NCBI RefSeq assembly: GCF_044324875.1
Contig: NZ_CP172185.1
Length of the DNA: 64,000 bases
Direction: 5' to 3' (one strand)
From: Escherichia coli
GTDB taxonomy: Bacteria; Pseudomonadota; Gammaproteobacteria; Enterobacterales; Enterobacteriaceae
Made by a program: the position numbers and the translations under genes. This document shows, piece by piece, positions 31,042 to 64,000 of this stretch. How positions within the stretch are numbered: the stretch's first letter is position 1; every line of letters starts with the position of its first letter. The notes beneath the pieces were generated by a model that saw only the letters and a program-made list of their open reading frames with translations, ran no database searches and was not told the origin of the DNA.

Positions 31042-31153
31042 AGGGAGACAAAAAAAGCGCCCGCAGGAGATTTAACGGTACTTACTCCTCTTGCTGATTT
31101 CCTTATTTTTCAATAAGTAAACAAAAACAAGGGGAGCAAATTATCACAAATAA

Positions 31154-32158
31154 TTACTGGTCGATGGACAGTTTATGGACACTTTCAGCCAGCGGATTAA
31201 AGCTGATCGCATCCTGTAAAAAGTCCGGTGAAAAATGCGCATACGTCATCGTTTGCTGAATCGTGGCGTGACCCAGGATCCTCTGCAACGTGACGATGTT
31301 CCCGCCGTTCATCATGAAATGCGTGGCGAACGTGTGCCGCATGACATGCGTGGCCTGCCCTTTGGGTAAGTCGGGCTTCACCTCCTGAAGGATCTCCCTG
31401 AAACTGAGATAATCAACCTGATATAACAGGCCGGTCCGGCGGGTTTTAATTAACGGCACAACGGAATCAGCTACAGGAACCGAGCGCGATTTCCCGTTCT
31501 TTGTGTTAAAGAACGTCACCCTGTTACCCACGATGTGTTCCCCGCGAAGCGTTGACGCCTCTTTCCATCTGGCCCCGGTCGAAAGGCACAGAATGGCAAT
31601 GCGTCGTGCATCACCCTCAAGCCGTTTCAGAAGGCGATCAATCTCGTCATCTGAAAGAAAGGCCATTTCTGTATTCTGAACCTTGAGTTTACGTATTCCG
31701 CGCACAGGGTTTTCGTTATGATAAACCTCCGCGTCAATTAACAACGAAAACATCGCAGATAAGGCGCACAGGTCGCGATTGATACTGGACGGCATCAGTC
31801 CCGCCTGCAACTTATCCGAGCGATACTCAATCACGAATTTTCGTGTCATCTGGCTGGCGCGCGGGTCCCCCATTTCACGTATCACCTTCTCCAGTCTGGT
31901 TCTGTAGGTATCACCATATGCCTGATTACGACCATCAAGCATCCACCACACCTCAATCAGTTCTGATAACCGCCGTTGATCGGCGGGCCTTGCCTGCCAC
32001 GGGTTATTGTGGAAATTCTGAAGAACGTATCTTTCGAATTCCTGCGCCTTTGATTTCAGGGTGAAAATCTTACGAATCCGCCTTCCTCCCGCCCCCTGAG
32101 GCCTTACATCAACCTGATAACGTCCGTCTTTGAGTTGCTTAATCGACATGATCAGCAC
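31154..32158 (-). CDS. int: Phage tyrosine integrase (P2 Int-like)
   Basis: 334 aa; conserved ILCLSTGARW...ATHVMRHTFATHFMMNGG...LQRILGH...YAHF (R, H-x-x-R, Y catalytic residues). Confidence 0.93.
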   Translation of the reverse strand: MLIMSIKQLKDGRYQVDVRPQGAGGRRIRKIFTLKSKAQEFERYVLQNFHNNPWQARPADQRRLSELIEVWWMLDGRNQAYGDTYRTRLEKVIREMGDPRASQMTRKFVIEYRSDKLQAGLMPSSINRDLCALSAMFSLLIDAEVYHNENPVRGIRKLKVQNTEMAFLSDDEIDRLLKRLEGDARRIAILCLSTGARWKEASTLRGEHIVGNRVTFFNTKNGKSRSVPVADSVVPLIKTRRTGLLYQVDYLSFREILQEVKPDLPKGQATHVMRHTFATHFMMNGGNIVTLQRILGHATIQQTMTYAHFSPDFLQDAISFNPLAESVHKLSIDQ

Positions 32159-32218
32159 CTCCGACGGATAAACCTGTTAACCCCTGCTTACTGAACGCCG
32201 CCCGTTCAATATACAGCG

Positions 32219-32560
32219 TCAGCCAGCATTGCGGCCTGATTGGGGTGATTTTTGGGTATTGCGGGTTGAAACCTGATCGTCCTCCGACTGCGTGGAGCCA
32301 TCAAGAGAGAGAGCCGGGGCGATCTGACCGGCAACAGGTAGCGTCTTATCTTTGATTAGCCAGAACATATATTTTTCAAACCGATCCACTTGAAGGACGG
32401 CCTCAACAATCTTTGCTCTGGCGATCTTTTGCCCTGACTCATAATTCCTGACAGTTGCCAGAGATAACCCTGTAATATCAGCAAATTGCTTTTGAGTTAG
32501 CCCTTCCGTCTTGCGTATCAAACGCAACTTTTTCGCATAGTCTATTGACAAGATACTCAT
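32219..32560 (-). CDS. Phage immunity repressor (P2 C-like, XRE-type HTH)
   Basis: 113 aa; HTH LTQKQFADITGLSLATVRNYESG; position between int and divergent early operon. Confidence 0.8.
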   Translation of the reverse strand: MSILSIDYAKKLRLIRKTEGLTQKQFADITGLSLATVRNYESGQKIARAKIVEAVLQVDRFEKYMFWLIKDKTLPVAGQIAPALSLDGSTQSEDDQVSTRNTQKSPQSGRNAG

Positions 32561-32663
32561 TTGGGGATTAATCTCCTACAAAAGATAACCGTACGATTAT
32601 CTTTACAAGTCATCAAAAATCATCAAAAGGCGCAACAAGCGCACCAATGCAAGAGGATAACAA

Positions 32664-33185
32664 ATGCGGGAGATTATTGCCGACAAAGAGTTATCTGGCG
32701 CTCAACCGGTTCAGGATGATGGCGCGGACAATGAATTCATTGAAGCTGCCAACGACAACGAACACCTGGAAACCAAAACCAGACCGTCCTACAAAAAGGG
32801 CGCAACCCTACGACTGGACGGCCCAGTCGCAGGACTTGTGTCACTGGAAAAAGGGGCTGCCTATCTGGGGGTAACAAAATCTGCGCTACGCGCCGCCATT
32901 CAGCGCGGGCAGATGCCGGGTCACAAAACGCGCTCAAATCCCGAAGATGAAAAGTCAGACGGTACATGGTGGTTTAACGCCAAAGCCTGGGACGAACTAG
33001 CCGACGAACTACTGGAGTGCGAACCGCCAGAGTGGCACAACTGGAAAAGCTACTGGACGTACGACCGCAAGAAAAGAAAGTTTTCACCGGCAAACAAGGA
33101 GGACTGCCAGACCGTTAAAGGTAAGCAGGTTTACTCCCCCAGAGTTTCAAAACTGGAGCAACTCAAAAACAACCAGCCCGGCTAA
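32664..33185 (+). CDS. Cox/excisionase-like early protein (173 aa)
   Basis: AGAGGA SD 7 nt upstream; central HTH-like AYLGVTKSALRAAIQRGQMP; first gene of rightward early operon. Confidence 0.55.
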   Translation: MREIIADKELSGAQPVQDDGADNEFIEAANDNEHLETKTRPSYKKGATLRLDGPVAGLVSLEKGAAYLGVTKSALRAAIQRGQMPGHKTRSNPEDEKSDGTWWFNAKAWDELADELLECEPPEWHNWKSYWTYDRKKRKFSPANKEDCQTVKGKQVYSPRVSKLEQLKNNQPG

Positions 33186-33193
33186 ACACGAAA

Positions 33194-33400
33194 ATGACCA
33201 GCAATATCATCAATGCCGTTTTGAACATTATATTCCTGGAATTAGGCGTAGTAGTGATTTATCTGCTTGGCAAGCTAACAGGACAAAAAGAACGTTTTAT
33301 TGTCCTCAACGTTCATTACGTCGCAGCTTATTCTAAAGGGCTTTTTCCAATAGTTGTTGGCGCGGGACTTACAGCGTTTGTCATCTGGCTCATCAGGTAG
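33194..33400 (+). CDS. Small hydrophobic protein (68 aa, two predicted TM segments)
   Basis: ORF directly following cox-like gene; weak RBS. Confidence 0.4.
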   Translation: MTSNIINAVLNIIFLELGVVVIYLLGKLTGQKERFIVLNVHYVAAYSKGLFPIVVGAGLTAFVIWLIR

Positions 33401-33682
33401 AGGCACACAACGTAATCATTCGTAGCTATATTTCCGCAATAGTATTCAAGTAAAGGAAGACAACAACATGAAACCAAGACAAAGATTAACCTCCAGAAGT
33501 AGTGACGCATTGCACTTTAAAGCAAAAGACATAATAGCCACAACAAAGGTAGGAGCATAAGTCTATATACACTTTCAGAATTTCTATCTGGAGAGAACAT
33601 TAAAAACGGAAGAGGAAGCCAATGAGTATTTGTTATTCATGAAAGATTGCATAGAAGGAAAAATAAGCGCAGGAGATAAATA

Positions 33683-33991
33683 ATGCGAAAACATTATTCA
33701 CAGCCACATTTCCGCAACAGTGCACCACGCAGCAATAACCGCTGGAGCCTGCGCGAAACACACGCAACGCCGGGCGGTCATGCTGTAAAACAGACTGGTC
33801 AACACACCTGGCTGATTGAGCAGGCCGGACTCGTGATCCACAGATGCCACCGCAATCCGTTTACCGGAAACCGCATTTTTGCACTGAGCAGCGGCGACAA
33901 TCAGTTCGGACAGGATTTCACACTGCACGAAGCCTTGCGAACTGCCGACCGCTTAATCGAGGGGCGCAGCTTTCAGCATACCGACTACTAA
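33683..33991 (+). CDS. Hypothetical phage early protein (102 aa)
   Basis: AGGAG SD upstream of ATG. Confidence 0.45.
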   Translation: MRKHYSQPHFRNSAPRSNNRWSLRETHATPGGHAVKQTGQHTWLIEQAGLVIHRCHRNPFTGNRIFALSSGDNQFGQDFTLHEALRTADRLIEGRSFQHTDY

Positions 33992-34029
33992 GGCAAAAGG
34001 AGTCTTAATAAGACAGAAGAGGCAGCAAG

Positions 34030-34272
34030 ATGAAAAGAGCCTATAAAGAACTCATTAACGACGCGCTTCAGAATTACCATTACGGACTTACAAGCCGTGG
34101 CACTAACGGTGACGCTGTTTCACTTGCAGCACTGACTACAGCAATCAAGGGCCTGACCTGTTGCGCCTTTGGTTCCGGAGATAATGAAGCTCTGACGGAA
34201 TTACAGGCCATTAATAAAGACCTGTCTGAAGGAAACGTAATAACCCCCTTTGTAATTCAGGAGGAAGCATGA
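34030..34272 (+). CDS. Hypothetical phage early protein (80 aa)
   Basis: ORF with plausible RBS; stop overlaps next start (ATGA). Confidence 0.5.
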   Translation: MKRAYKELINDALQNYHYGLTSRGTNGDAVSLAALTTAIKGLTCCAFGSGDNEALTELQAINKDLSEGNVITPFVIQEEA

Positions 34273-34394
34273 GCGTATTTATGTCATGGTTAATTCTTAT
34301 CCTTGCCATTATTTGCGCTGTGGGGATTATGCGGGTAATTAACAGCATTAACACCATTGAATCGTTATTTACTGGCGATAAGCGCCGTAAATAA
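34269..34394 (+). CDS. Small membrane peptide (41 aa), translationally coupled
   Basis: AGGAGG SD, ATGA overlap with upstream ORF; MSVFMSWLILILAIICAVGIMRVI hydrophobic helix; below ORF-track size cutoff. Confidence 0.45.
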   Translation: MSVFMSWLILILAIICAVGIMRVINSINTIESLFTGDKRRK

Positions 34395-34474
34395 ACAGGC
34401 GTTTAACACCAGAAACAACCAGAAACATCCGCTCACGCGGAGGGGTTGACCCGCTCAAAAAGGAGAAATCAGGA

Positions 34475-34768
34475 ATGCTTAATAATAAAAAAAACCGAAT
34501 CATTGATAACAGTGAACAGGTCAACAAAATAATCGAAGGCACAAACAAATTAATTAAGAAAAAAAACAAACTAAGCCGTGAATTAATGGAACATCCGGAA
34601 GAAATATTATTAGCCATGATGCACCAGACAGAAGCGATAGCCATCGCCCTTGCCGTGCAGGCGCTTTCTGAGTTCCGGGAAGAAAACATCAGGCTGGCTC
34701 AGGAGCTGAAAAACCTCAGACGTCAGCTTCAGAGCACTGAGGCTGGCACGTCATCACGAATACACTGA
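34475..34768 (+). CDS. Hypothetical Lys-rich protein (97 aa) in AT-rich island
   Basis: AAGGAG SD; AT-rich codon usage unlike flanking phage DNA. Confidence 0.55.
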   Translation: MLNNKKNRIIDNSEQVNKIIEGTNKLIKKKNKLSRELMEHPEEILLAMMHQTEAIAIALAVQALSEFREENIRLAQELKNLRRQLQSTEAGTSSRIH

Positions 34769-34778
34769 GGGCCACACC

Positions 34779-34988
34779 ATGACTGCAATTCTGAGAAGAC
34801 GCAATAAAACGCTTTTTACCGATACATCCGGGATGGAATACGAAGTGGAAAGCAGTGTCATCGCCACCACCACCCGATGCCCGGCAGGTGACGAACTGAT
34901 TTACGTCCACCTGACGGACGGGTCACAGATAACCGTCCTGACAGAGTCATGGCGCGAACTCGAGATAATAAGCGAGGTAAGAACATGA
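34779..34988 (+). CDS. Hypothetical phage early protein (69 aa)
   Basis: GAGGG SD; compact spacing. Confidence 0.5.
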   Translation: MTAILRRRNKTLFTDTSGMEYEVESSVIATTTRCPAGDELIYVHLTDGSQITVLTESWRELEIISEVRT

Positions 34989-35197
34989 GCAGCAAACACG
35001 ATACCAACGCACGCAGACCAGGCAAAGAGGCGCGTCACCATATCGCCGTAATGCGCAACCTGCTTATGAGTGAAATCGACGATTTTGTGGCAGGCCTGGG
35101 GCAACCGGGCGAACCAGCAACACCAGGCCAGATACACAGGGAATTACGCCGCCGCGTGGAAAACGTCGTGGATTACGTCATAAACCCGAACGACTGA
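34985..35197 (+). CDS. Hypothetical phage early protein (70 aa)
   Basis: ATG overlapping previous stop; GAGGT SD. Confidence 0.5.
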   Translation: MSSKHDTNARRPGKEARHHIAVMRNLLMSEIDDFVAGLGQPGEPATPGQIHRELRRRVENVVDYVINPND

Positions 35198-35236
35198 CGG
35201 GAACATGGCGAGCGTCAGATGACACACGCAGGGCAC

Positions 35237-35719
35237 TTATCGGGAAAAACCGATCGTAATGGCAGCCATCATCTTTTCAGCGAAAGAGAGAGATTCACGA
35301 TGACTGATATTCAGAGACATACAGGCTTTGTTGTACGCCACATTTTCCATGCATTCCAGGACAGGAGAGTCATGCATCTCAAGCTCTGGAAGGCGTGCCA
35401 GCAGAGCTTCCGTACTGAGGAGGGCGCTTTTGGTAATCAACTCATTGTAGCGATGGGCATGCTCACTCGCCGCCTGCGCACGTTGCCCGAAACGACATAT
35501 GAAATTACAGGCTCCGAGAACCACCACCACTGCCCCAAGCACCCAGCCGAAATGCCAGCCGGCTACGATGAACGCACCCGCCGCAAGGATCAAAATGTTG
35601 ATGATCGCATCAAGGCGACGATTGAATACCGCCGCGATGCGCTCCAGCCAGTAGCTGTACCAGAGACGGAACATGACCTCATCCCGTTCTCTCGATTTTT
35701 TACGTTGGTTGTTTTGCAT
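35237..35719 (-). CDS. Membrane protein (160 aa, central double TM hairpin), opposite strand to early operon
   Basis: GAGGGA SD before ATG; hydrophobic stretch INILILAAGAFIVAGWHFGWVLGAVVVVLGACNFI; more protein-like than the overlapping plus-strand ORF. Confidence 0.55.
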   Translation of the reverse strand: MQNNQRKKSRERDEVMFRLWYSYWLERIAAVFNRRLDAIINILILAAGAFIVAGWHFGWVLGAVVVVLGACNFICRFGQRAQAASEHAHRYNELITKSALLSTEALLARLPELEMHDSPVLECMENVAYNKACMSLNISHRESLSFAEKMMAAITIGFSR

Positions 35720-35953
35720 GGTGTTTTATCCCTCATCGTCATCGCTCTGCCCCTAATCAGCGCAGAGTGCAGGGTAACCTGGCTCGTGGAATTTTTGCAG
35801 CCAGACATCTTTACCCCCGGGCGTGTTGAACAAAGTGTCCGCCAGATCCACTGAACGGCGGATTCATCAATGCTAACACGCCCTTCTTTTCCGGTTGAAG
35901 GCGAAAAAACCGGACCATTACCCCGACACAAAACAGAACAACGGAGAACAACT

Positions 35954-36508
35954 ATGCCCGCACTTAAACCTATGGGTGTATCAGGTGTACCACCGAAGCA
36001 TGTCAGAGCCTGGACACAACAGGAAGATGCTCTACTGGTCGGTTTATACCCCTCCCACACCGTACCAGAACTGACAAAACACTTTCAGAGAACCGGGCCA
36101 GCAATACGAAGCCGCATCCGTCTTTTGCTCTCTCAGGGGGTTATCCACACCAAACAACCCCCCCTGAATACAAAAGAACTCAACACGCTCATCAGGAATC
36201 GCCACACAAAAACCATCCGGGAACTCGCGAATGAACTGGGGCGCTCGACATCCACGGTGGGACTGAACCTGAGAAAAAGAGGGTACCGGTTCAGGAAATA
36301 CGGGGAACTCCACCACAGAGCCAGATACAGCGATCACCTGGTGGAGTTGGTAACTGAACTGCGCGATGAACAGGGGATGACATTCAGCGAAATCAGAAAG
36401 TACATCCGGGACATGGCCGGGATATCCCTTAAAAGATGGGTCCTCGCCCGGCTTTACGCACGATATACCGCCGCTGACACCGTGCTTTGCGAACTGCTAC
36501 CGGACTGA
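35954..36508 (+). CDS. DNA-binding protein with repeated Myb/HTH-like units (~184 aa)
   Basis: Start at ATG with GGAGA SD (MPALKPMG); repeats resembling W-T-x-x-E-D-x-x-L Myb/SANT pattern. Confidence 0.5.
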   Translation: MPALKPMGVSGVPPKHVRAWTQQEDALLVGLYPSHTVPELTKHFQRTGPAIRSRIRLLLSQGVIHTKQPPLNTKELNTLIRNRHTKTIRELANELGRSTSTVGLNLRKRGYRFRKYGELHHRARYSDHLVELVTELRDEQGMTFSEIRKYIRDMAGISLKRWVLARLYARYTAADTVLCELLPD

Positions 36509-36606
36509 GTAACCACTATGCACACACAAAAAAACCGCTTGCCATGCCGCAATCAGTCAGGTTACATTTCCGCTGCACCTCATAAAACGGGTGCCGGGAT
36601 TGCAAC

Positions 36607-36648
36607 CCCCGCTGACAACTACAGCGCACAACCGCGCCAGCGGTTTTT
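36607..36648 (+). terminator. Candidate rho-independent terminator
   Basis: CCGCTG...CAGCGG hairpin followed by T7. Confidence 0.45.
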
Positions 36649-36828
36649 TTGTGCGTACCGTATCGCCACGTCTTTTTCGCGCCAGAATTATGGCGGGGCG
36701 TATGGGGCCGACTTCGGTCGGGCCGGTTTCTGTAGTTGCCGGTGGTTGCAACCCTGTACGTCTCGCCACCCAGAATTGCAACCTCTGGATGGTGAGTTTT
36801 CAAAACTTGCAACTACAGAGGCCACACC

Positions 36829-37053
36829 ATGGCAAACCGCAAACAACAGCGCGCATACGCTGCGCGTCGTCACATCCAGACTGAAATCAACCGCAGACTT
36901 TTCCGCGCATTCCGCGTCGCGCATATCATGCACATCAATATGCTGCATGAGCGCAGCCACGCACTGTCAAACATGTATTCCGCCGCTGTATTCAGCTACC
37001 TGGCGGATGACCTGCGCGAGCTGCAGGACCTCATTAACCAGCACCACCACTAA
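36829..37053 (+). CDS. Hypothetical small basic protein (74 aa)
   Basis: ATG preceded by AGAGG; preferred over overlapping low-complexity 205-aa ORF. Confidence 0.4.
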   Translation: MANRKQQRAYAARRHIQTEINRRLFRAFRVAHIMHINMLHERSHALSNMYSAAVFSYLADDLRELQDLINQHHH

Positions 37054-37121: not shown

Positions 37122-37535
37122 ATGAAGAGCGTTAAGGGACTTTCAGATATTCAGGATTTTTTTAACTGGATGTGGGCGGTGGATCCACGCCTCGCTTCCC
37201 GTCTCAATGACCTGCACGACTATTACCGCCGCGCCTGTAAACAGGCAGCCCGCAGCGCTGCCACATACGGGGATTTTTCCTTCACCGTTGACGACCGTTA
37301 CCGCGTGGATGTCAGAGACCAGAACCACAGCCTGGAGCTGGGCCTGTTCCACATCAACGGGTGCGACAGCAGCGTTATCAGCTGGTCATCGTCAGAAATG
37401 GTGCTCGTTCTGGAAATGACCACCCACAGCGTGGTCGTGAAAGGGATTAAAACAGCAGAAGACTTTATCGCTGAATACCAGCGCCTTCTTGTGCTGTACC
37501 GGGCTGCATTTCAGAAGGCAACAGCAGGGGAGTAA
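37122..37535 (+). CDS. Hypothetical phage protein (137 aa) immediately upstream of gene A
   Basis: GGAGG SD; tight spacing to replication gene. Confidence 0.55.
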   Translation: MKSVKGLSDIQDFFNWMWAVDPRLASRLNDLHDYYRRACKQAARSAATYGDFSFTVDDRYRVDVRDQNHSLELGLFHINGCDSSVISWSSSEMVLVLEMTTHSVVVKGIKTAEDFIAEYQRLLVLYRAAFQKATAGE

Positions 37536-40670: not shown

Positions 40671-40681
40671 AGGAAAAATAT

Positions 40682-53682: not shown

Positions 53683-53697
53683 CACGCGGAGAATGTT

Positions 53698-54932: not shown

Positions 54933-55279
54933 CCGCTGTTTACAGGGGGATGAACCCGCAGGGAACCGGCACGCTGAGCGACAGCGAACACCTGAAAAAC
55001 AGCGTGCGGGATATCCTGACCACACCGCCAGGCAGCCGGGTGATGCGCCGCGAATACGGCAGCCTGTTACCGGACCTCATCGACGAGCCCATGAACGACA
55101 CCACGCGTTTACAGTGCATGAGCGCCACGGTGACTGCGCTGGCGCGCCATGAACCCCGTATAGCACTGCAGAACGTCGATGTGAACTGGCGGGCTGGCGG
55201 ACGCGCCGTGGTGACGTTATCCGGCATCATCACCGAAACCATGCAGAACATCACATTCAGTATCACCCTGAGGGAGTAA
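54929..55279 (+). CDS. Baseplate wedge protein (P2 gpW / gp25-like)
   Basis: Start MTAVYRG overlapping V stop; 116 aa. Confidence 0.87.
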   Translation: MTAVYRGMNPQGTGTLSDSEHLKNSVRDILTTPPGSRVMRREYGSLLPDLIDEPMNDTTRLQCMSATVTALARHEPRIALQNVDVNWRAGGRAVVTLSGIITETMQNITFSITLRE

Positions 55280-55282
55280 ATC

Positions 55283-56735: not shown

Positions 56736-56738
56736 ACC

Positions 56739-58973
56739 ATGAGCACGAGAAAATTCAGAACCCTTATCACCGACATCGGGCTGGCAAAGCTGGCCGCAAC
56801 AACGGCGCCTGGCGGTAGACCTGTACGCCTTACGCACATGGCTGTAGGGGACGGCAATGGAGAGCTTCGTCAGCCGCAGAAAAACCAGACATCGCTTTAC
56901 AATGAGGTTTGGCGCCAGTCTGTCAACCGCGTCTTCACCGACCCGGAGAACCCGAACCGCCTCATCGCCGAACTGGTCATTCCTCCTGAAACCGGCGGAT
57001 TCTGGGTGCGTGAAATTGGTGTGTTTGATGATACAGGTACAATGATTGCAGTAGGAAATACCGCTGAAAGTTACAAGCCCACCAGAGAGGAAGGTTCAGG
57101 GCGGGCGCAGATATTCCGTGCAGTAATCACCGTCACCTCCGACGCCGTGGTGGAACTGGTCATGGACACAACAACAATTCTGCCGACCACGGACTACATT
57201 GATGAGAAAATGGCGGAACACGCACGTTCCCGTAACCACCCTGACGCGACACTGACAGAAAAAGGATTCACCCAACTGAGCAGCGCCACAAACAGCACCT
57301 CTGAAACACTGGCCGCCACACCGAAGGCCGTCAAGGCTGCATATGACCTTGCAGCCGGTAAAGCACCCGCCAGCCACACCCACCCGTGGAATCAGATAAC
57401 TGGTGTGCCATCAGCCTCGCTGACGGCAAAAGGCACCGTACAGCTGAGCAGTGCCACAAACAGTGAGTCAGAGACTGAGGCGGCCACCCCCAAAGCGGTT
57501 AAAGCCTTACACGATATGGTGACGAGCAAGTATACAGGACAGGATGCAACCACCGGACGCAAAGGCATCGTACAGCTGAGCAGCGCCACAAACAGCAATT
57601 CCGAAACACTGGCGGCCACACCGAAGGCAGTAAGTGATGCACTGAGCATGGCGTTCGTGAAGCCAACAACATCCCTGGGGGAAACAGACCTGAACACTCT
57701 GGGGCGTAAGGAAGACGCGGGAGATTATTACCAGCAGAGTGACTCAGGTGCGAGAACAGACAGAAACTATCCTGTAGAGAAGGCAGGAGAGTTACGCATC
57801 CGTGTTGGTGCATGGGGATTCTGCCAGCATGAATACACGAGCTGGGATCCGCCACGAAAATTTATCAGGACAGTTACCGGAAACTTTAACGGTAACGGCC
57901 CATGGTCAGAGTGGGTGGAGGTGACAAACACAGATGCAACAACTGGACGCAAAGGCATCGTACAGCTGAGCAGCGATACAAACAGCAATTCCGAAACGCT
58001 GGCGGCCACACCAAGAGCCGTCAAGGCTGCATATGACCTTGCAGCCGGTAAAGCACCCGCCAGCCACACCCACCCGTGGAATCAGATAACAGGTGTGCCA
58101 TCAGCCTCGCTGACGGCAAAAGGCACCGTACAGCTGAGCAGTGCCACAAACAGTGAGTCAGAGACTGAGGCCGCCACCCCCAAAGCGGTTAAAGCCTTAC
58201 ACGATATGCTGACGAGCAAGTATACAGGACAGGATGCAACCACCGGACGCAAAGGCATCGTACAGCTAAGCAGCGCCACAAACAGCAATTCCGAAACGCT
58301 GGCGGCCACACCAAAAGCTGTTAAAGCTGCGTATGACCTTGCCAACAGCAAAGCCTCGGCAGCCCACACTCATCGCTGGGCTCAGATCACAGACGCCCCT
58401 GTTTTTTCGTCTGTTGCCCGCGTCATCATGGGTAAACAAAGCATAAAAGATATTCTTGATTACTTTGGTTTAGGAGAAGGCTCGACGCTGCCAGTTGGCG
58501 TACCCGTTCCGTGGCCTTCGTCAAGACCACCTGAGGGGTGGTTACAGTGCAACGGTGCCGCATTCACGCGTACAAAATACCCAAAACTGGCGGTGGCCTA
58601 CCCTGACCTCAGGCTACCAGATTTGCGCGGGGAATTTATTCGTGGATGGGATGACCTGCGAATGATTGACAGGGGACGCTTATTGTTATCCACACAGGAA
58701 GCAACATATATTTGTACCGCCATACAGGCGTACCACGGCGTAGCGGGAGGTGCAGATATTCAGGCAGGGATTTCATTTGCATCACATGATAACGACATCA
58801 TAAACATAACCCCTGATCAACCCAGAACCGGTAACGGCATCCTGTACGGCACAAAACCAGTTGACAGATGGGCAATAGCCAGAGCCGGTAAGCTGGTGAG
58901 TAATGAAAAAGACAGATGGATAGCGATCAGACCGCGCAATATCGCTTTTAATTATATTGTGAGGGCAGTTTAA
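56739..58973 (+). CDS. Tail fibre protein (P2 gpH-like) with internal repeat array
   Basis: 744 aa; repeated TGRKGIVQLSSATNSNSETLAATPKAVKAAYDLA units; C-terminal receptor-binding region. Confidence 0.9.
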   Translation: MSTRKFRTLITDIGLAKLAATTAPGGRPVRLTHMAVGDGNGELRQPQKNQTSLYNEVWRQSVNRVFTDPENPNRLIAELVIPPETGGFWVREIGVFDDTGTMIAVGNTAESYKPTREEGSGRAQIFRAVITVTSDAVVELVMDTTTILPTTDYIDEKMAEHARSRNHPDATLTEKGFTQLSSATNSTSETLAATPKAVKAAYDLAAGKAPASHTHPWNQITGVPSASLTAKGTVQLSSATNSESETEAATPKAVKALHDMVTSKYTGQDATTGRKGIVQLSSATNSNSETLAATPKAVSDALSMAFVKPTTSLGETDLNTLGRKEDAGDYYQQSDSGARTDRNYPVEKAGELRIRVGAWGFCQHEYTSWDPPRKFIRTVTGNFNGNGPWSEWVEVTNTDATTGRKGIVQLSSDTNSNSETLAATPRAVKAAYDLAAGKAPASHTHPWNQITGVPSASLTAKGTVQLSSATNSESETEAATPKAVKALHDMLTSKYTGQDATTGRKGIVQLSSATNSNSETLAATPKAVKAAYDLANSKASAAHTHRWAQITDAPVFSSVARVIMGKQSIKDILDYFGLGEGSTLPVGVPVPWPSSRPPEGWLQCNGAAFTRTKYPKLAVAYPDLRLPDLRGEFIRGWDDLRMIDRGRLLLSTQEATYICTAIQAYHGVAGGADIQAGISFASHDNDIINITPDQPRTGNGILYGTKPVDRWAIARAGKLVSNEKDRWIAIRPRNIAFNYIVRAV
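57328..57625 (+). repeat. Copy 1 of ~300-bp near-identical direct repeat inside tail-fibre gene
   Basis: Near-identical to 58018-58315 (offset 690 bp) with five single-base differences noted in the aligned core. Confidence 0.8.
58018..58315 (+). repeat. Copy 2 of ~300-bp direct repeat inside tail-fibre gene
   Basis: See copy 1. Confidence 0.8.
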
Positions 58974-59584
58974 TGAGTAACACTGCAGTTCTGGATGAAA
59001 ACGGTATCGCCACTTTCGCAGGCGATATCACTGTATATCACTATGATGAGGAAACCCGGGAATACACCTCATCCTCTGTGGAGTATCTCGCCCTGGGGGT
59101 GGGTACCCCGGCACATTCATGCGCCGATGCCCCGCCAGAGGCAATGCCGGGTTACGTGATTTGCCGGACGTCCACGCTGGACGGGTGGGAGTATGTCCCC
59201 GATCATCGTGGAGAGACGGTATACAGCACAGAGAACGGTAATCCGGTCCAGATTACCCAACCAGGTGACTACCCGGAAGGGACAACGACAAAACAGCCTG
59301 CCACACCATGGGATACCTGGAACGGTGAGGCGTGGGTAACCGATACAGAACGGCAGCAAGCCGAAGAGCTGGAGGTTGCCAGACAGCAACGCAAGGAACG
59401 GGTGGATCAGGCGATGAAGTCCATCGACCTCATCAACCTTAAGTTGCGGGCAGGTCGCAGTCTGACACCAGAAGAAACGGCAAAACTGAATGCCGTGCTG
59501 GATTATATCGACGAGCTGAACGCACTGGATATCAGCACGGAGCCTGAAATAAGCTGGCCGGAAACACCACCAGAAATGGAATGA
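58973..59584 (+). CDS. Tail fibre assembly chaperone (P2 gpG-like)
   Basis: 203 aa; start overlaps H stop. Confidence 0.87.
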   Translation: MSNTAVLDENGIATFAGDITVYHYDEETREYTSSSVEYLALGVGTPAHSCADAPPEAMPGYVICRTSTLDGWEYVPDHRGETVYSTENGNPVQITQPGDYPEGTTTKQPATPWDTWNGEAWVTDTERQQAEELEVARQQRKERVDQAMKSIDLINLKLRAGRSLTPEETAKLNAVLDYIDELNALDISTEPEISWPETPPEME

Positions 59585-59654
59585 GCGGGGAAAAGGAACG
59601 GGCATTCATAAATAATTCATCATGCAGGTGCCGCAAGAATGCGGCACATTACCT

Positions 59655-60143
59655 TCACATCAGATCATTTACGCCGCTTACTGTGGTATTCCAGACCGAA
59701 CTTAACTTCCCTTTCATTCCCGAAAGCATATCAGACACCGGCGACGAGGCCATACTCTCCCGCAAATCCTCATCACAGCGTTCCAGACTGACAGTGAACT
59801 CAATTTTTTTGGCCTTACCGTGGCGGTCAAGTTCGCTTCGCGTTGTGCGGACAGCCGTTATCACATACATGCCGTATATCTGCCCCACACCGTCAATCAG
59901 CGGCCATGGGCGACCAGTGTAAGCCTGCGTCGTTAAAAGGCTGAGGGAAACCTCACCGCCGGTAATTTCGGGATAAAGCACACCGGACAACGTGATCTGG
60001 TCGTCACCCGCCCCGATATACTGCCAGCTGGCCGAACGATTGATGCGTTCATTTTTAACGTGGCGCCAGGTTTTATTATGTTGCAGTTGTTGATGAGGCA
60101 GCGTACGCAACTCAAAAACAAACATGCCGTAAATCATCATCAT
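59655..60143 (-). CDS. Tail protein U-like
   Basis: 162 aa; follows tape-measure gene on minus strand; conserved ITLSGVL...GRPWPLIDG...YGMYVIT region. Confidence 0.82.
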   Translation of the reverse strand: MMMIYGMFVFELRTLPHQQLQHNKTWRHVKNERINRSASWQYIGAGDDQITLSGVLYPEITGGEVSLSLLTTQAYTGRPWPLIDGVGQIYGMYVITAVRTTRSELDRHGKAKKIEFTVSLERCDEDLRESMASSPVSDMLSGMKGKLSSVWNTTVSGVNDLM

Positions 60144-60154
60144 GCGAGGTACTC

Positions 60155-63100
60155 CTAATCTCTGTCACGGAAACTACCGACTGTCTGGCGGATACGGCGT
60201 TCCATTTCCGCACGGACGGCATCACCCACCATTTTTGCCAGTTCGCGCGGGTTTTGCGTGTGAACATCATGCAGGTGAATATGCAGTTCGCCAGTTAATC
60301 CCCATGGTGCCGGCTCACTCTGGCGCGGTCGGGGCGATGCGGGGGATATGGGCTGGCGCACAGCCTCAACCACCGGACGGGATGTTGCCGCCATCACTGG
60401 TGTCATTAGCGGGGAGAACGTCGGCATGACATCGTGAGTCATAACCGGTTTGATCACCGGCGGAACCACTGGCGTAATATTACCGGACAGTACCGGACGG
60501 ACGACCGGAGGAATAACCGGCACATTATTCACGGACACCACCGGCTTCACGACCGGCGACACGTTCGCCGTGGTGGATATCAGCGGCGAAACACTGACAG
60601 GCGGTGGCGCTGGCAGCGGTGGCAACGAAGGCACACTGACCGACGGCACCTGCGGCAGTCTGACAGGTGGCTCACTGACACTACCCGGTAACAGGGAAGC
60701 TGCTCGGTTAAAGCGTTCCTCCTTCCACTCACCACGAACGGCCAGCGCTTCCGGCAGGTTTTTAAAGATAATATCGCCGGGACCAGCGCGTTTTTTCGCC
60801 TGTTTCGCCTCATCCAGCAGACCACCGGTGTTATCGACGATTTTGTTCAGGCGGCGCATAGTGCCGGTATTCTCCCCCGTCAGGGGTGGTTGCCCCCCTT
60901 TGGGTTTTTCGCCGTCTTTTTTATCCTCGTCCTTTTTCGGCGGATTAATGACGTTAACATCCGCCAGAAGCATGGCAGCTTTCTCGTTCAGCAACTCCTT
61001 CTGTTTTAGTTCTTCCGCCTTTTTCCGGGCGCGCTCAACCGCCGACGGAATCAGCCCGAGTTTTTCCAGCACCCGGGTTAATGAGTCAATCAGCAGCGTA
61101 ACCGGACCGGTCACCAGATTGCTGATAAACTCCCCTACCTTCTGCCCGAACGTACGCCCGGCTTCCGTGCACTTGTCCAGCTCATCCTTTGTTGTGCTTA
61201 CCGGCGCGAACAAATCCACGAACCACTGCCACACACGCCCGATTGTCTGCCCGACATACTCAAACAGCGGTCCCAGTGGTGCCACAGCCTCGCGCAGTGG
61301 CGTAAGCCCCTGCCACAGGCCGGACAAGAACCCGCCCACGACAGCCTTCAGCTGGTCCCAGTGCCGCCAGATAAGCACTGCCGCACCGACCAGTGTCGCC
61401 ACCACAAGGCCCACCGGACTTAACAGAAAACCCAGCGCCCCGCCAAGTGCGCCCACCGCACCACTCACCATCCCCCACAGTGCGGGCAGACCTGACAGTC
61501 TGAGCGCCAGTATTCCGATACCGCGCCCCAGTGAAATCAGTGCGCCGCCAGGTGAAGTGAACGCAGCCAGCAGACCACCACGCAGCGCGCCAAGTCCCGC
61601 CTGCACACCACGAAGCCGCCCCGCAACTACGCCCAGCAGTGCAGCAAACCGTCCGGCACCGGAGGTGATACCGACAAACAGCACGCGCCAGCCACCGATA
61701 CCGCCCAGCGGACCACCGAGTACGCCGCGCAGCTGCGTCAGTAACGGCAGCGCACGACCGAGGCCGGATGTGCCGGTCAGCAGGGCAAACCCAAGACGCA
61801 GTTTTGCCAGCGGCCCCATCAACACACCAGTGGCAAGTGACAGCGCCCCCATGGCCGCAACCGCAGCCAGCAGTACACCACCGGCAATCAGCAGTTGTTT
61901 TGTCAGTTCAGGGTGCGCCTGAGCCAGCGCGGTGACTTTCGCAATAACCCGGGTGAACGACTGCGTGACAGAACGCAGCGGCCCGTCAACGAGGTCAGCG
62001 ACACGGATACGCAGTCCTTCCCATGCGCTGTTCAGTGATTTCAGGTCACCGTCCAGGTTATCAGCCATAACACGGGCAGTGTGATTAAGTTCCCCGGTGG
62101 CCAGTTCAATCTCCTGCGTAAGACGGGGAAGATTATTTTCCCCCGCCGCAGTGACAAGATTCATCAGGGAAACATAGGACTCCTGCCCGGCAATAGCCCT
62201 GAAAAAGGAGACCTGCGCGGCATTACCGTATTTTCGGGTGGCCTGGTACAGCTCATTCAGGATATTTTCCATCCGGCGCATGTTCCCGTAAGCATCCTGC
62301 GTCTCCACGCCAAGCTCTTTCAGTGCCATTGCAGCGGCCTTCGGCGGATCAACCAGACGTGACAGACTGGCACGCAGCGCCGTACCTGCATCACTTCCAC
62401 GGATCCCCACACTGCCAAGGACACCCGTCATGGCTGCCGCCTGTTCAAGGGACAGGCCAAGTGAAGCTGCAACCGGACCCGTGTACTTCATGGTTTCACC
62501 CAGTGAACGGAGATCCGTATTGGTTCGTGTGAAGGTGGCGGCCAGCGTGTCACCCACGCGATCCATCTGGTCAGCGGACAGACCAAACTGTGTGAGGATA
62601 TTCGAACTGATATCGGCAGTCTGTCCCAGGTCCATCCCTGCAGCCATTGCCAGATCAAGCACGCCGGGTAGCGCCGCCTGTATGGCCTGTGGTGTGAAGC
62701 CGGCCATGGCAAGGAACGCCTGACCGCTGGCAGCATCACCGGCGGTAAACTGCGTTTCAGAGCCCAGCTTAATGGCCTGTTCGCGCAGCGCCTTAAACTG
62801 CGGACTGTTTTTGTCAATACGGGTCAGCGCCTGGACGCGTGACATCTCCTTACCAAAACTGACCGCCGGTTGCAGGAAACGTCCGGCCGCATAGCCGCCT
62901 GCCGCCGCCGTACCAACCGCCGTAAGTCCGACCGTTTTAAGTTTTCCCGCCGTCTCCTGAGCACGGGAATATTGCTGGCGTGCCTGCGTGACACGTGCCA
63001 GCGCCTGCCGTTCGCGTTCCAGCTGGTCGTTGTATTGCTGTGTTCGCCGTATGGCCTGTTGAATGGTGTTGTCACTGCCGGAAAGCGCAATACCGTGGCG

Positions 63101-63466
63101 CCGCAGCTCACCACCCAGTTCGCGCATTCGCTGAACTTCACGCGCACGGACCTCATTGAGACGCTCAAGTTTGAGGCTCAAATCGTTCATCAGCTTTTTC
63201 TGTTTGTCAGACAGCACGGTTCCGGCGCGCTGAATTTGCTGAAGTGCGCTTAACTGGCGTTGTGCCCGGGCAATGCCGTTTCCGGCCTTGTTTGCAGCCT
63301 CGCGGGCGCGATCAAATGAACGGGCGTGGCGTTCCAGGTTTTTGATCGCACCCTGCGTTCTCTGTATGGAGTCGCCAAGCTGGCCCATCATGCGACGGGC
63401 GTTTTCGGTGGGACGGGTCAGCCTGTCAACAGCGCTGAAGGCGACCCGTATATCAAGCGTTTTCAT
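60155..63466 (-). CDS. Tail tape measure protein (P2 gpT-like), with C-terminal Pro/Val-rich repeats
   Basis: About 1100 aa; start set at ATG (MKTLDIRV) that overlaps the stop of the predicted E' frameshift extension; upstream GTG alternative at 63502. Confidence 0.88.
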   Translation of the reverse strand: MKTLDIRVAFSAVDRLTRPTENARRMMGQLGDSIQRTQGAIKNLERHARSFDRAREAANKAGNGIARAQRQLSALQQIQRAGTVLSDKQKKLMNDLSLKLERLNEVRAREVQRMRELGGELRRHGIALSGSDNTIQQAIRRTQQYNDQLERERQALARVTQARQQYSRAQETAGKLKTVGLTAVGTAAAGGYAAGRFLQPAVSFGKEMSRVQALTRIDKNSPQFKALREQAIKLGSETQFTAGDAASGQAFLAMAGFTPQAIQAALPGVLDLAMAAGMDLGQTADISSNILTQFGLSADQMDRVGDTLAATFTRTNTDLRSLGETMKYTGPVAASLGLSLEQAAAMTGVLGSVGIRGSDAGTALRASLSRLVDPPKAAAMALKELGVETQDAYGNMRRMENILNELYQATRKYGNAAQVSFFRAIAGQESYVSLMNLVTAAGENNLPRLTQEIELATGELNHTARVMADNLDGDLKSLNSAWEGLRIRVADLVDGPLRSVTQSFTRVIAKVTALAQAHPELTKQLLIAGGVLLAAVAAMGALSLATGVLMGPLAKLRLGFALLTGTSGLGRALPLLTQLRGVLGGPLGGIGGWRVLFVGITSGAGRFAALLGVVAGRLRGVQAGLGALRGGLLAAFTSPGGALISLGRGIGILALRLSGLPALWGMVSGAVGALGGALGFLLSPVGLVVATLVGAAVLIWRHWDQLKAVVGGFLSGLWQGLTPLREAVAPLGPLFEYVGQTIGRVWQWFVDLFAPVSTTKDELDKCTEAGRTFGQKVGEFISNLVTGPVTLLIDSLTRVLEKLGLIPSAVERARKKAEELKQKELLNEKAAMLLADVNVINPPKKDEDKKDGEKPKGGQPPLTGENTGTMRRLNKIVDNTGGLLDEAKQAKKRAGPGDIIFKNLPEALAVRGEWKEERFNRAASLLPGSVSEPPVRLPQVPSVSVPSLPPLPAPPPVSVSPLISTTANVSPVVKPVVSVNNVPVIPPVVRPVLSGNITPVVPPVIKPVMTHDVMPTFSPLMTPVMAATSRPVVEAVRQPISPASPRPRQSEPAPWGLTGELHIHLHDVHTQNPRELAKMVGDAVRAEMERRIRQTVGSFRDRD

Positions 63467-63616
63467 GCTCTGCGTTCCCGCTGCGAAGGGCCGCCCGCTC
63501 ACGCCAGGCGACCACCTCGCCGGGATCCATCAGGAAGATTTCAGCGGGAGACCAGTTGAAAATAACGGCGATATCCGCCACAAAGTCTTCAATATGCTCA
63601 AAGGGCACGACGGTTA

Positions 63617-63979
63617 TCAGCCTGCCGTCGCCGCCACGCTCTTCCCGCCAGAGTCCTGACCGGCCAAAAAATTAACCGCCACCCCGCACAGCTGAATAAA
63701 ATCAGCGGACCCCATGCGCTTAAGCAGAACCTCGTCCAGTCGCGGCGAAGTGACGCGCGGGAGTAACTCAAACATCGCGTCCGTTTTCATGTTCAGCACG
63801 TCAAGCAGTGACAGCCCGCGCAGTGAACCGGCCTGCTGTACAGCAGGCGTGATTTCCACATACGTGATTTTTTTGTTACCGAGCACAAGGGGCGTTTTCA
63901 GCGTCACGCCGCGCTCACTGGTCACGTCCGCCGCATCAGCACCGTCAGTAACAGGGGCAACAACCGGATTTTCTTTCAT
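63617..63979 (-). CDS. Tail tube-associated protein E-like (zero-frame product)
   Basis: 120 aa; immediately upstream of tape measure; contains slippery heptamer near 3' end. Confidence 0.72.
   Translation of the reverse strand: MKENPVVAPVTDGADAADVTSERGVTLKTPLVLGNKKITYVEITPAVQQAGSLRGLSLLDVLNMKTDAMFELLPRVTSPRLDEVLLKRMGSADFIQLCGVAVNFLAGQDSGGKSVAATAG
63665..63671 (-). other. Candidate programmed -1 frameshift site (T TTT TTG) for E/E+E'
   Basis: Minus-strand AAT TTT TTG in E frame; -1 frame stays open ~63 codons and stops (TGA) overlapping tape-measure ATG. Confidence 0.55.
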
Positions 63980-64000
63980 GCATAAAACCTCAAATCAGGG

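Follow-up and report, generated by a model that had tools for sequence, protein, structure and literature searches.

The 64,000-nucleotide stretch of Escherichia coli DNA analysed here (the window) is chromosomal from 285 to 31073, where it is collinear with K-12 (98% in alignment). dmsA lies on the minus strand (28413-30857) and the FNR-type site of its promoter, TTGTTcggtATCAA (31028-31041), read from the sequence and identical to that of K-12, is kept on the chromosomal side; the FNR consensus is reportedly TTGAT-N4-ATCAA, with the dmsA site at -41.5. Against the uninterrupted K-12 serS-dmsA spacer, a comparison that the first-pass annotation had recommended, identity stops at 31067/31068. 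The prophage starts at 31068 and runs to the window end at 64000, giving ~32.9 kb of phage DNA inside the window, IS included. Insertion directly upstream of dmsABC had been predicted, with the left ~33 kb in the window and the junction within the ~110 bp between the FNR site and the int stop at 31154, and that is where it falls. A sister prophage, 99.7% identical, is also present between serS and dmsA in E. coli ECCNB12-2 (NZ_CP033635). Gene identities are from PHROG profiles, and protein identities are from a tblastn table against P2, 186, P88 and vB_EcoM-569R5.

Nearest the junction is the tyrosine integrase gene, int (31154-32149, minus strand; phrog_1, 1.8e-70), whose product is 51% identical to its counterpart in P2, 36% in 186, 48% in P88, 90% in vB_EcoM-569R5 and 91% in PhiECO5, the prophage of UTI89. 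Next is a gene for a C-type immunity repressor with a helix-turn-helix (HTH; 32219-32560, minus; phrog_147, 3e-28), 34% identical to P2 C, 64% to that of UTI89 and 88% to that of vB_EcoM-569R5. Divergent from it is a gene for a 173-aa Cox-family excisionase/switch regulator (32664-33185, plus; phrog_23196, 1.6e-92), and the homologue in NZ_CP033635 is annotated as 'Cox family DNA-binding protein'. By homology, lysogeny is presumably kept by the P2-type C repressor opposite the Cox-type excisionase over a divergent switch. The early accessory ORFs (33194-36508, mixed strands) fall in PHROG families without assigned function. On the plus strand are 33194-33400, 34475-34768, 34779-34988 and 34985-35197, together with DUF4761 (33683-33991), DUF4754 (34030-34272) and an HTH protein (35870-36508); a single ORF is on the minus strand (35237-35674). 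Across 33194-36508 PADLOC gave no match and the Pfam matches were weak HTH ones only.

Upstream of gene A is a putative P4/P1-type antisense-RNA immunity cassette (36575-37053), all of it on the plus strand. An isrK-like leader RNA with its terminator (36575-36650; Rfam RF01394, 60.1 bits against a gathering score of 50) holds target boxes a1 (36600-36607) and b1 (36616-36624), and is followed by a C4 / P4-CI-type antisense RNA (36686-36773; RF01695, 80.1 bits against 45) with loops b′ (36729-36739) and a′ (36744-36751). Further 3′ are boxes a2 (36776-36783) and b2 (36809-36819), the latter abutting the GAGG Shine-Dalgarno of a 74-aa 'derepression protein' gene (36829-37053; Pfam PF25738 'Derepression protein family', 3.5e-6), whose product is 87-89% identical to its P88 (87%) and UTI89 homologues. 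Boxes a1/b1 and a2/b2, on both sides of the C4 RNA in the same transcript, are complementary to its loops a′/b′, and loop and target covary in the three-way comparison of the window, P88 and UTI89. The order of isrK-like leader and C4-family RNA is that of P4 immunity (CI RNA, epsilon); as in P4, P1 and P7 each of the two antisense loops matches one upstream and one downstream box, and as in P4 and the P1/P7 immI (c4 RNA, icd/ant) the downstream box adjoins the ribosome binding site of a small 'Derepression'-family gene. P1 and P7 are heteroimmune, and the covariation among the related phages resembles this. Unlike the P4 and P1 cases, the carrier is a full-size P2-family phage rather than a satellite or a P1-type plasmid prophage, and the replication gene downstream is of gpA type, not P4 alpha. 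The RNA pair is also in P88 and satellite P4 and was not found in P2 or 186, and BLAST gave no direct similarity between the derepression protein and P4 epsilon. Judged by homology, the cassette may be a second layer of control ahead of the derepression gene and replication gene A.

An ORF without assigned function (37122-37535, plus) precedes the gene for a gpA-type rolling-circle replication endonuclease (37541-40051, plus; phrog_91 'nicking at origin of replication', 2.5e-241), 32% identical to A of P2, 33% to that of 186 and 51% to that of P88. The A-to-Q accessory region that follows (40048-45245, plus) is at the position of a known P2 defence hotspot (bioRxiv 10.64898/2026.02.27.708500). 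What had been taken for cargo is a 2639-bp IS21-family element and small ORFs in PHROG families without assigned function (40048-40479, 40476-40670, 43643-43852, 43849-44250 and 44541-45245, plus); PADLOC, NCBIfam and Pfam gave no family and no recognisable defence system in this region. The element, ISSso4-like and on the minus strand (40762-43400), splits a plus-strand ORF of 104 codons (40682-40761, resuming 43401-43641). It has istA (in ORF 41633-43279; NF033546, 1.1e-84, 284 bits, cut-off 160) and then istB (in ORF 40861-41859; NF038214, 2.2e-76, 257 bits, cut-off 200), TG...CA ends and a 6-bp target duplication, TCAGTC, at 40756-40761 and 43401-43406, as expected for the IS21 family. Copies at 99.7-99.9% identity are elsewhere in E. 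coli; the element is precisely missing from the otherwise 99.7% identical NZ_CP033635 prophage, and none of 5426 complete E. coli genomes has it at this prophage position (40762), which leaves room for the source strain to differ at the far end past 64000.

The head genes begin with those for portal gpQ (45312-46367, minus; phrog_68, 2.5e-146) and large terminase gpP (46367-48118, minus; phrog_5751, 1.6e-153), whose products are 44-46% identical to those of P2 and 82-86% to those of P88. Divergent from them, on the plus strand, are the genes for scaffold gpO (48273-49109), major capsid gpN (49138-50277), small terminase gpM (50280-51062), head completion gpL (51165-51659) and gpX (51659-51856), assigned to phrog_73, 70, 74, 71 and 46 respectively, with 36-48% identity to P2 and 70-77% to P88. 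This is the divergent Q-P and O-N-M-L head module of the Peduoviridae (PHROG matches of 1e-59 to 1e-153), with order and strands as in P2 and 186 and proteins 36-48% identical to their counterparts there. The plus-strand lysis cassette (51850-53231; phrog_1350, phrog_7, phrog_214) has genes for a holin (51850-52140), a lysozyme-type endolysin (52194-52682), the LysB spanin (52679-53086) and an embedded LysC (52968-53231, position mapped from the NZ_CP033635 annotation). The first two had been labelled Y and K; they are a holin and an endolysin by PHROG, non-homologous to P2 Y/K and without a tblastn match in P2, 186 or P88.

Genes R, S (tail completion), V, W, J, I (baseplate), H and G, in PHROG tail and baseplate families, occupy 53218-59584 on the plus strand, with tail fibre H, which has internal repeats, at 56739-58973 and fibre assembly G at 58973-59584; the R-to-H proteins are 33-63% identical to those of P2 and 67-80% to those of P88, and G had no match in the tblastn comparison. 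Beyond G the strand changes, and 59655-63979 (minus; phrog_76, phrog_28) encodes gpU (59655-60143), tape measure gpT (60155-63502; 1115 aa from the first start codon), the E′ frameshift segment (63453-63608) and gpE (63617-63979). Of the Peduoviridae baseplate and tail set, the window holds X to G together with U, T, E and E′; the evidence for FI, FII and D comes from the NZ_CP033635 copy, at a position past the window end. P88 and UTI89 also carry the U-T-E block on the minus strand; in P2 and 186 it has the opposite orientation. The gene order earlier proposed, that of P2, holds for int, C, cox, A, Q-P-O-N-M-L-X, LysB and R-S-V-W-J-I-H-G, all named by PHROG match, and fails past G, where U, T and E follow within the window, on the minus strand, and FII-FI, beyond it, are likewise inverted. 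The genes other than those for control would form a full set for P2-type morphogenesis, in which the tail block from sheath to U has the inverted orientation seen in P88. Judged from NZ_CP033635, ~7.1 kb more phage DNA probably lies to the right of 64000, with FII, FI, D, ogr, hok-type modules and attR; ogr, for an Ogr/Delta zinc-finger late-gene activator, is beside D in the NZ_CP033635 and UTI89 prophages. The completeness of the window prophage and its far-end direct repeat are likewise read from that copy, in another strain.

The IS21-family insertion raises the prospect that the prophage is a decaying, non-functional remnant and not a viable phage. The annotation of the NZ_CP033635 sister copy lists the tape-measure gene and a small ORF as pseudogenes, and the right end past 64000 could be damaged. 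Against this, each of the 40 phage genes examined within the window has an open, full-length reading frame, the 1115-aa tape measure included. The IS strikes just one accessory ORF of 104 codons, the NZ_CP033635 relative retains both att copies intact, and prophages of this type are common in E. coli and conserved. Decay is considered unlikely. The window copy would rather be an otherwise unbroken prophage additionally struck by an IS in a small A-Q accessory ORF, with no essential gene in the window disrupted. The IS takes the genome to ~40 kb, roughly 7% over the uninterrupted 37.4 kb, an enlargement that might impede cos packaging; similarity to P2 or 186 located no cos site. P88 is mitomycin C-inducible (PMC5285337), and by analogy the window prophage may be too.

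That this is a P2-family prophage, as had been recognized at first sight, is borne out by capsid, terminase, baseplate and tail proteins and a gpA with P2/186 homologues in P2 order, by structural proteins best matched by P2-like phages, and by the combination of gpA with an int-C/cox switch in which the Cox-family gene is divergent. The comparison with P2 and 186 that had been suggested does yield family homologues, at 32-63% identity, and the closest lineage is instead that of P88 and PhiECO5, with P88 proteins 60-86% identical. Membership of the classical P2 (Peduovirus) or 186 (Eganvirus) genus would accord with the family-level gene set and switch layout, with Int 51% identical to that of P2 and with H, I and J 55-63% identical to their P2 counterparts. 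It is nevertheless highly improbable, as both P2 and 186 are outside the best 25 of 284 phage records in megablast, the FI-FII-E-T-U tail block is inverted with respect to both, the holin and endolysin are unrelated to those of P2 and the C4/isrK cassette is here and not in P2/186. The ICTV convention for a genus is at least 70% nucleotide similarity over the genome; neither 70% similarity nor collinear late genes was found with respect to Peduovirus or Eganvirus. At genus level the prophage is not P2- or 186-like; on its sequence it is P88/PhiECO5-like. What it has in common with P2 (Peduovirus P2, NC_001895) is architecture at the family level (int-C/cox, gpA, divergent Q-P and O-N-M-L-X, R-S-V-W-J-I-H-G), and it differs in being without old, tin and fun(Z), in its 173-aa Cox (91 aa in P2), in its inverted tail block, unrelated lysis enzymes and extra RNA-immunity cassette, and in its attB.

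Among records of isolated phages, P88 (Xuanwuvirus P88, NC_026014; Chen et al. 2017, PMC5285337) is one of the closest. It has identical gene order, U-T-E-FII-FI on the opposite strand, structural proteins 60-86% identical, and in common with the window prophage the isrK and C4 RNAs and the derepression protein (87% identical), though with a different C4 'a' loop specificity. Its integrase differs (48% identical) and its attP is without the serS core; it has an invertible fibre segment and DNA invertase that are absent from the window prophage, ParM/ParR in the A-Q region, and a different holin and endolysin. Its DNA is ~78-80% identical over 33% of the first 21 kb (the prophage genome being incomplete in the window), and nucleotide similarity is probably below genus level. 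PhiECO5 of UTI89 uses this attB too, the serS terminator in the serS-dmsA spacer, and has a closely related integrase (91%), the same isrK/C4/derepression cassette and the shared overall order, including the inverted tail block, with ogr and hok beside attR; nucleotide identity in its structural genes is 70-77%. Its early region differs, its A-Q hotspot holds ParM/ParR, its lysis genes include an M15 peptidase where the window prophage has a lysozyme, and its fibre region has an invertase where the window prophage has none. PhiECO5 is immunity class IX of Nilsson et al. 2011 (PMC3448106), a class in which near-identical C and operator spacer would be expected; with C just 64% identical to that of UTI89, and 88% to that of vB_EcoM-569R5, the immunity type is probably different. 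With a probability of about 0.93, 31068-64000 covers the ~33 kb on the int side of a temperate Peduoviridae myophage of ~40 kb that belongs to the P88/PhiECO5 lineage and is placed between serS and dmsA.

Three-way alignment of K-12, the window and NZ_CP033635 defines a 15-bp core, AAAAGCGCCCGCAGG (31053-31067, no strand; here the attL copy), common to attB, attL and attR, with one copy in the window (0.02 expected by chance) and one in K-12. In NZ_CP033635 two direct copies, 37,389 bp apart, flank the 99.7% identical prophage, and a 20-bp version is repeated in UTI89, so that the direct repeat foreseen at the far end is present by proxy. The core, 12 bp from the FNR-like dmsA site, is one half of the hairpin of the bidirectional serS terminator, which lies 24 bp past the serS stop codon. 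What the phage split and rebuilt is this terminator hairpin downstream of serS and not the serS gene; the first-pass annotation had envisaged replacement or reconstitution of the 3′ end of the upstream gene, and the coding sequence of serS is intact at its 3′ end. Sequence and folding show that the hairpin restored at the serS junction has a shorter U-run. The P′ side of attP (31068-31181, no strand; by comparison with the annotated P2 attP) has a core-type inverted-repeat half, GGTACTTA, at 31077-31084 and two arm-type TGGACA repeats (31165-31170 and 31176-31181) within the 3′ end of int. The reconstructed attP has two TGGACA arm repeats per side, an A/T-rich IHF-like palindrome and the core between inverted GGTACTTA boxes. 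In P2 attP, likewise, the P′ arm CTGTGGACACTGTGTGGACAC overlaps the int 3′ end and the P arm has two repeats, and P2 also has the IHF-like A/T palindrome and a non-tRNA intergenic target. The PhiECO5 core is 20 bp (AAAGCGCCTGCGGGCGCTTT) as against 15 bp in the window, the overlap being 14 bp. A P2-type tyrosine integrase would have recombined attP with attB, the GC-rich serS terminator hairpin, at the shared core.

On the dmsA side all sequence farther upstream than about -74 relative to the FNR-dependent promoter has given way to phage DNA. The promoter itself had been thought intact, and it is: the core promoter matches K-12 exactly up to the att core. Rfam RF02084 places a putative sRNA, STnc130, at 30948-31082 on the plus strand (125.8 bits against a gathering score of 55, full model), divergent from dmsA and antisense to its leader; its final 15 nt come from the phage. 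The serS terminator/att core supplies its terminator stem, in which phage bases break two of the eight pairs. In Salmonella STnc130 is listed as a putative sRNA next to dmsA (PMC3632133).

Integration might be regulatory, altering dmsABC or STnc130 expression through loss of the terminator half and of upstream DNA, with a C-int transcript reading into dmsA or STnc130 reading antisense into int as the proposed routes. Folding indicates that the attL hairpin is lost in the serS/int reading direction and weakened, by those two of eight pairs, in that of STnc130; no canonical terminator was found between int and the dmsA promoter, and phage DNA starts ~33 bp past the FNR site centre. Against this, the chromosomal side keeps the FNR box, the -10 region and a ModE-like palindrome, CGCTATATAggcttgTATACATCG (read at ~30931-30955), each of them the same as in K-12; STnc130 is itself putative. 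In UTI89 the full hairpin is kept at attL, and because of this a regulatory effect would not be a conserved property of the group. Such an effect is improbable, and the serS-dmsA prophage is an ordinary P2-family temperate phage whose site and type were already on record, to which little new is added. The site was catalogued in 2011 for PhiECO5 (Nilsson, Karlsson & Haggard-Ljungquist 2011, PMC3448106), with whose coordinates those of the UTI89 prophage compared here (NC_007946, 911187-948481) are equal, and a P88-like island 'downstream of serS' was described in ST131 in 2025 (PMC12632120). The dmsA-int-C-cox junction is present in 342 of 5426 complete E. coli genomes (~6%).

The observation made in the first-pass annotation, that a P2-like prophage stands directly upstream of dmsABC, is confirmed, and its interpretation is supported with corrections. 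The window is collinear with K-12 at ~98% identity from 285 to 31073, from ycbJ back to the serS-dmsA spacer, with dmsA called at 28413-30857 on the minus strand. At 23002-23041 there is a separate difference from K-12, with ~1.5 kb (most of ycaN and all of ycaK) missing and ~40 bp in its place. In a three-way alignment of the window with the K-12 spacer and the serS flank of a related genome, identity to K-12 runs from the dmsA start codon to 31067 and breaks at 31068, and the chromosome-phage boundary is fixed exactly at 31067/31068. This is inside the ~110-bp interval, FNR site to int stop, to which the junction had been assigned, 12 bp past the FNR-like box TTGTTcggtATCAA (31028-31041) and 87 bp short of the int stop codon (31154). 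The same alignment identifies AAAAGCGCCCGCAGG (31053-31067) as common to attB and to the junctions on the dmsA and serS sides; this core occurs once in the window, against 0.02 copies expected by chance. An att site of the tRNA type is ruled out because an ARAGORN scan of the whole window gives neither tRNA nor tmRNA genes.

The K-12 core is one strand of a hairpin, AAAAAGCGCCtgcgGGCGCTTTTTTT, that begins 24 bp past the serS stop codon and on RNA folding forms a 10-pair stem-loop. At the serS-side junction the same hairpin folds with 9 pairs, followed by UUUU as against seven U in K-12, and at the dmsA-side junction, in the serS/int direction, it is gone; the terminator is thus cut in two by the phage and restored on the serS side, with the serS coding sequence intact. 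The suggestion that the phage had replaced or reconstituted the 3′ end of the upstream gene is refined by the alignment and folds, which show the target to be the serS terminator, with the coding sequence untouched. Read on the opposite strand, the serS hairpin is the terminator of STnc130, which Rfam matches over the full model at 30948-31082 (125.8 bits), and since STnc130 and serS end in the same hairpin, the att core sits in a bidirectional terminator common to serS and this putative sRNA. In the window 2 of the 8 stem pairs of the STnc130 terminator are broken because its 3′ half is phage DNA. The terminator is rebuilt to differing degrees among members of the phage group: the UTI89 prophage PhiECO5 has a 20-bp att core, AAAGCGCCTGCGGGCGCTTT, that spans the whole hairpin, so that both UTI89 junctions keep it. 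A bidirectional att terminator, unevenly rebuilt from phage to phage, could merit a small experiment. STnc130 runs divergent from the dmsA leader and spans the dmsA promoter; it is on record only as a putative sRNA adjoining dmsA in Salmonella (PMC3632133).

The dmsA FNR box, promoter and leader are identical to those of K-12 in the alignment and dmsABC is intact, as had been supposed from the sequence at first reading. Bearson and colleagues (in 2002) reportedly placed the P1 start of dmsA 223 bp upstream of the start codon as first annotated, and centred FNR at -41.5. This agrees with a start near 30993, since the start codon now in use lies a further 87 nt upstream. On that numbering the first phage bases would fall near -74 of P1. 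A weak upstream promoter, P2, at about -91, would be displaced by phage DNA, and a ModE-like palindrome (CGCTATATAggcttgTATACATCG, read at about 30931-30955) remains on the dmsA side. No canonical terminator stands between C-int and dmsA or between STnc130 and int. Transcripts of C-int might conceivably run on into dmsA, or those of STnc130 into int, a possibility that we rate as low.

The dmsA-int-C-cox junction is entire in 342 of 5426 complete E. coli genomes (~6%; megablast of 29500-33000). The best match, NZ_CP033635 (strain ECCNB12-2), has its prophage between serS and dmsA and is 99.66-99.75% identical over 27841-64000, save for one 2639-bp insertion in the window. Past the equivalent of 64000 it has tail tube and sheath genes, then D (VgrG/Pvc8-type) and ogr, then ~3.7 kb of hok/gef-type modules, then attR and serS. 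The window itself ends before any far-end repeat, but since this 99.7% identical relative carries two directly repeated copies of the 15-bp core, separated by 37,389 bp, the att-type direct repeat looked for at the far end is present there. For the window's own far end a second AAAAGCGCCCGCAGG is predicted ~7.1 kb past 64000, followed by CGCTTTTTAGATTCAG and the serS stop codon. The ogr-attR interval of the sister prophage (8400-12100 of the extracted locus) consists of repeated modules, among them at least two hok/gef-type toxin ORFs preceded by sok-like regions, and a small ORF present in several copies that each end in a terminator AAAAAATGCCCGC...GCGGGCA; the UTI89 prophage has, in contrast, a single hok module at this place.

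An attP was reconstructed by joining the phage arm of NZ_CP033635 to that of the window, and is predicted to read ...TTAAGTACCATGC-core-AGATTTAACGGTACTTA... Its P arm has two TGGACA repeats 11 bp apart and is followed, in order, by an A/T-rich palindrome GAAAATAAAATCCATTTATTTTCA, TTAAGTACC, the core and GGTACTTA (window 31077-31084), with TGGACA again in the P′ arm at 31165-31170 and 31176-31181, within the 3′ end of int. The annotated attP of P2 has the same plan, with a P arm that contains the repeats TGTGGTCA and TGTGGAC, then an IHF site GAAATAAATCCTTTTATTTCA, the core and a P′ arm CTGTGGACACTGTGTGGACAC overlapping the 3′ end of int. This homology, together with an Int 51% identical to that of P2, suggests a P2-type integration mechanism.

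All 40 extracted phage genes are open, and their identities come from PHROG profiles. The lysogeny switch comprises int (31154-32149, minus), a C-type repressor (32219-32560, minus) and a Cox-family regulator (32664-33185, plus); small ORFs of the early region and a gpA-type nickase for replication (37541-40051) follow. Head and packaging functions are portal Q and terminase P (45312-48118, minus) and O, N, M, L and X (48273-51856, plus), then come the lysis genes for holin, lysozyme and LysB/LysC (51850-53231) and the tail and baseplate genes R, S, V, W, J, I, H and G (53218-59584). The gene order of the first-pass annotation is correct through G; what it overlooked is the inverted tail block already inside the window on the opposite strand, namely U (59655-60143), tape measure T (60155-63502) and E′/E (63453-63979), all minus. 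The tape measure is intact at 1115 aa, ~300 aa longer than P2 gpT, and is annotated as a broken pseudogene in NZ_CP033635 (16028-19339 of the extracted locus). A small ORF at 43849-44250 is likewise intact in the window and a pseudogene in that relative. Tail-fibre gene H has internal direct repeats of ~350 bp at ~95% identity (57276-58392). Between G and U the window phage has a gap without a gene (59585-59654), unlike P88 and the UTI89 prophage, which carry an invertase or an alternative fibre segment there. The sole minus-strand ORF of the rightward early region, at 35237-35674, encodes 145 aa and belongs to a family without assigned function (phrog_6315); with SLATT and BaxI (Bax-inhibitor-like) hints, all sub-threshold, it may be a prophage-expressed moron for a membrane protein. 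A similarity search for cos in 43400-45400 against the cos regions of P2 and 186 gave just chance 8-10-mers. As to SOS control, the sole CTGT-N8-ACAG box (42495-42510) is within an insertion sequence, and nothing points to a Tum-like antirepressor under LexA control.

None of 50,697 phage records covers 80% of the query in megablast of 31042-52000, the best being vB_EcoM-569R5, P88-type prophages and P88, at 33-50% query coverage and 78-80% identity. The vB_EcoM-569R5 record is actually a prophage with the same dmsA flank, and its Int is 90% identical to that of the window. Proteins share 32-63% identity with those of P2 and 186, and structural proteins share 60-86% with those of P88; holin, endolysin and G have no counterpart in any of the three. 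The block U-T-E-FII-FI runs opposite to H-G in P88 (genus Xuanwuvirus) and in the UTI89 prophage, as its U-T-E part does in the window; in P2 and 186 the order is FI-FII-E-T-U-D and the strand is that of H-G. The megablast matches, protein identities and gene order place the element in the P88 lineage of Peduoviridae, with a similarity to P88 that is probably under the genus threshold. Membership of Peduovirus or Eganvirus is excluded with certainty by the 32-63% protein identity and the tail-block order. The designation P2-like holds for the Peduoviridae gene set, though the element is nearer to P88 and its tail block is inverted. P88, obtained through mitomycin C induction (PMC5285337), has another integrase and another attP, and because that attP is without the serS core, P88 itself is ruled out as the phage of this site.

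Both the site and the phage type have been recorded before. PhiECO5 was listed by Nilsson et al. 2011 (PMC3448106) at 911187-948481 of UTI89, with a new C immunity class, IX, and these coordinates run from just past serS to just short of dmsA; its Int is 91% and its C repressor 64% identical to those of the window. In ST131 strain NS30, according to a 2025 paper (PMC12632120), a ‘phage P88’ island of 38.6 kb lies ‘downstream of a serS gene’. A full-text literature search linking serS, dmsA and prophage gave no match. The P88/PhiECO5 lineage fills the serS-dmsA site in ~6% of complete E. coli genomes, and to a type both known and common the present element adds its own repressor type, lysis cassette and IS insertion. 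The main value is one of annotation, with an exact boundary, intact dmsABC and serS, the lineage placed and the cargo an IS21-family element, and raises no new question by itself.

The 2639-bp element at 40762-43400 is the sole difference from NZ_CP033635. Its ends are TG...CA, with TCAGTC duplicated at the target, and it encodes IstA (NF033546, 284 bits) and IstB (NF038214, 257 bits). Other ISSso4-type copies of the IS21 family in E. coli match it at 99.7-99.9% identity. The element splits a 104-codon phage ORF starting at 40682 and lengthens the phage genome by ~7%, to ~40 kb. Since none of 5426 complete E. coli genomes shares its position, the insertion is recent and strain-specific. The A-Q interval is a known P2 defence hotspot (bioRxiv 10.64898/2026.02.27.708500). 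Of the ‘cargo’ noted there at first reading, this element is IS21-family and the other ORFs are PHROGs without assigned function, having no PADLOC, NCBIfam or Pfam match (ORFs 40048, 43849 and 44541 included). A defence system in the hotspot or early region was rejected, PADLOC giving just a cross-match between DrmD and the IstB ATPase.

Further work might be worthwhile on one part alone, an RNA cassette directly upstream of gene A. Rfam places an isrK-like leader RNA at 36575-36650 and a C4 antisense RNA at 36686-36773, between an HTH gene and a 74-aa gene (36829-37053) that matches the Pfam ‘Derepression protein family’ (PF25738, 3.5e-6). P88 carries this RNA pair too, as does the immunity region of satellite P4, where the order is likewise the same; P2 and 186 gave a match to neither RNA. 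Each of the two loops in the C4-like RNA matches one upstream and one downstream box on the same strand. Loop UCUGUAGUUGC is complementary to 36616-36624 and 36809-36819, the latter box abutting the GAGG before the start codon of the 74-aa gene, and loop GGUUGCAA to 36600-36607 and 36776-36783. In the window the a boxes read TTGCAACC with a′ loop GGTTGCAA and the b boxes CAACTACAG with b′ loop CTGTAGTTG, loop b′ of the C4-like RNA being CUGUAGUUG. P88 has TTTCCAC with GTGGAAA for a and is as the window for b, and UTI89 has TTGGAAC with GTTCCAA for a and CAACAAAG with CTTTGTTG for b. Both loops and both target sets thus co-vary across the three phages, the pattern that a functional antisense immunity element should give if its specificity differs from phage to phage, as in P1/P7 c4 and P4 CI. 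The 74-aa protein as a direct relative of P4 epsilon was rejected, there being no BLAST similarity and the link going through the Pfam profile only.

A tentative reading, to which we give roughly one chance in three, is that P2-family phages of the P88/PhiECO5 type run a second RNA immunity layer of the P4/P1 kind, in which an isrK-like leader and a C4/CI-like antisense RNA would be joined by a ‘derepression’ protein, distantly of the epsilon family, with its ribosome-binding site masked by that RNA. Helper-type phages would then be carriers, and possibly evolutionary donors or recipients, of P4's module for immunity and P2-helper derepression, and P88/PhiECO5-type phages would gain an induction route absent from P2. 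Rfam already assigns such prophage matches to the C4 family, and a literature search of incomplete coverage found nothing on the RNA cassette in P2-family phages. The cassette, with its clear covariation of loop and target, bears on the origin of the regulatory parts shared by P2-family helpers and P4 satellites. It lies at 36575-37053 of the window, and also at 5028-5295 and 33370-33660 of the extracted loci L003 and L007.
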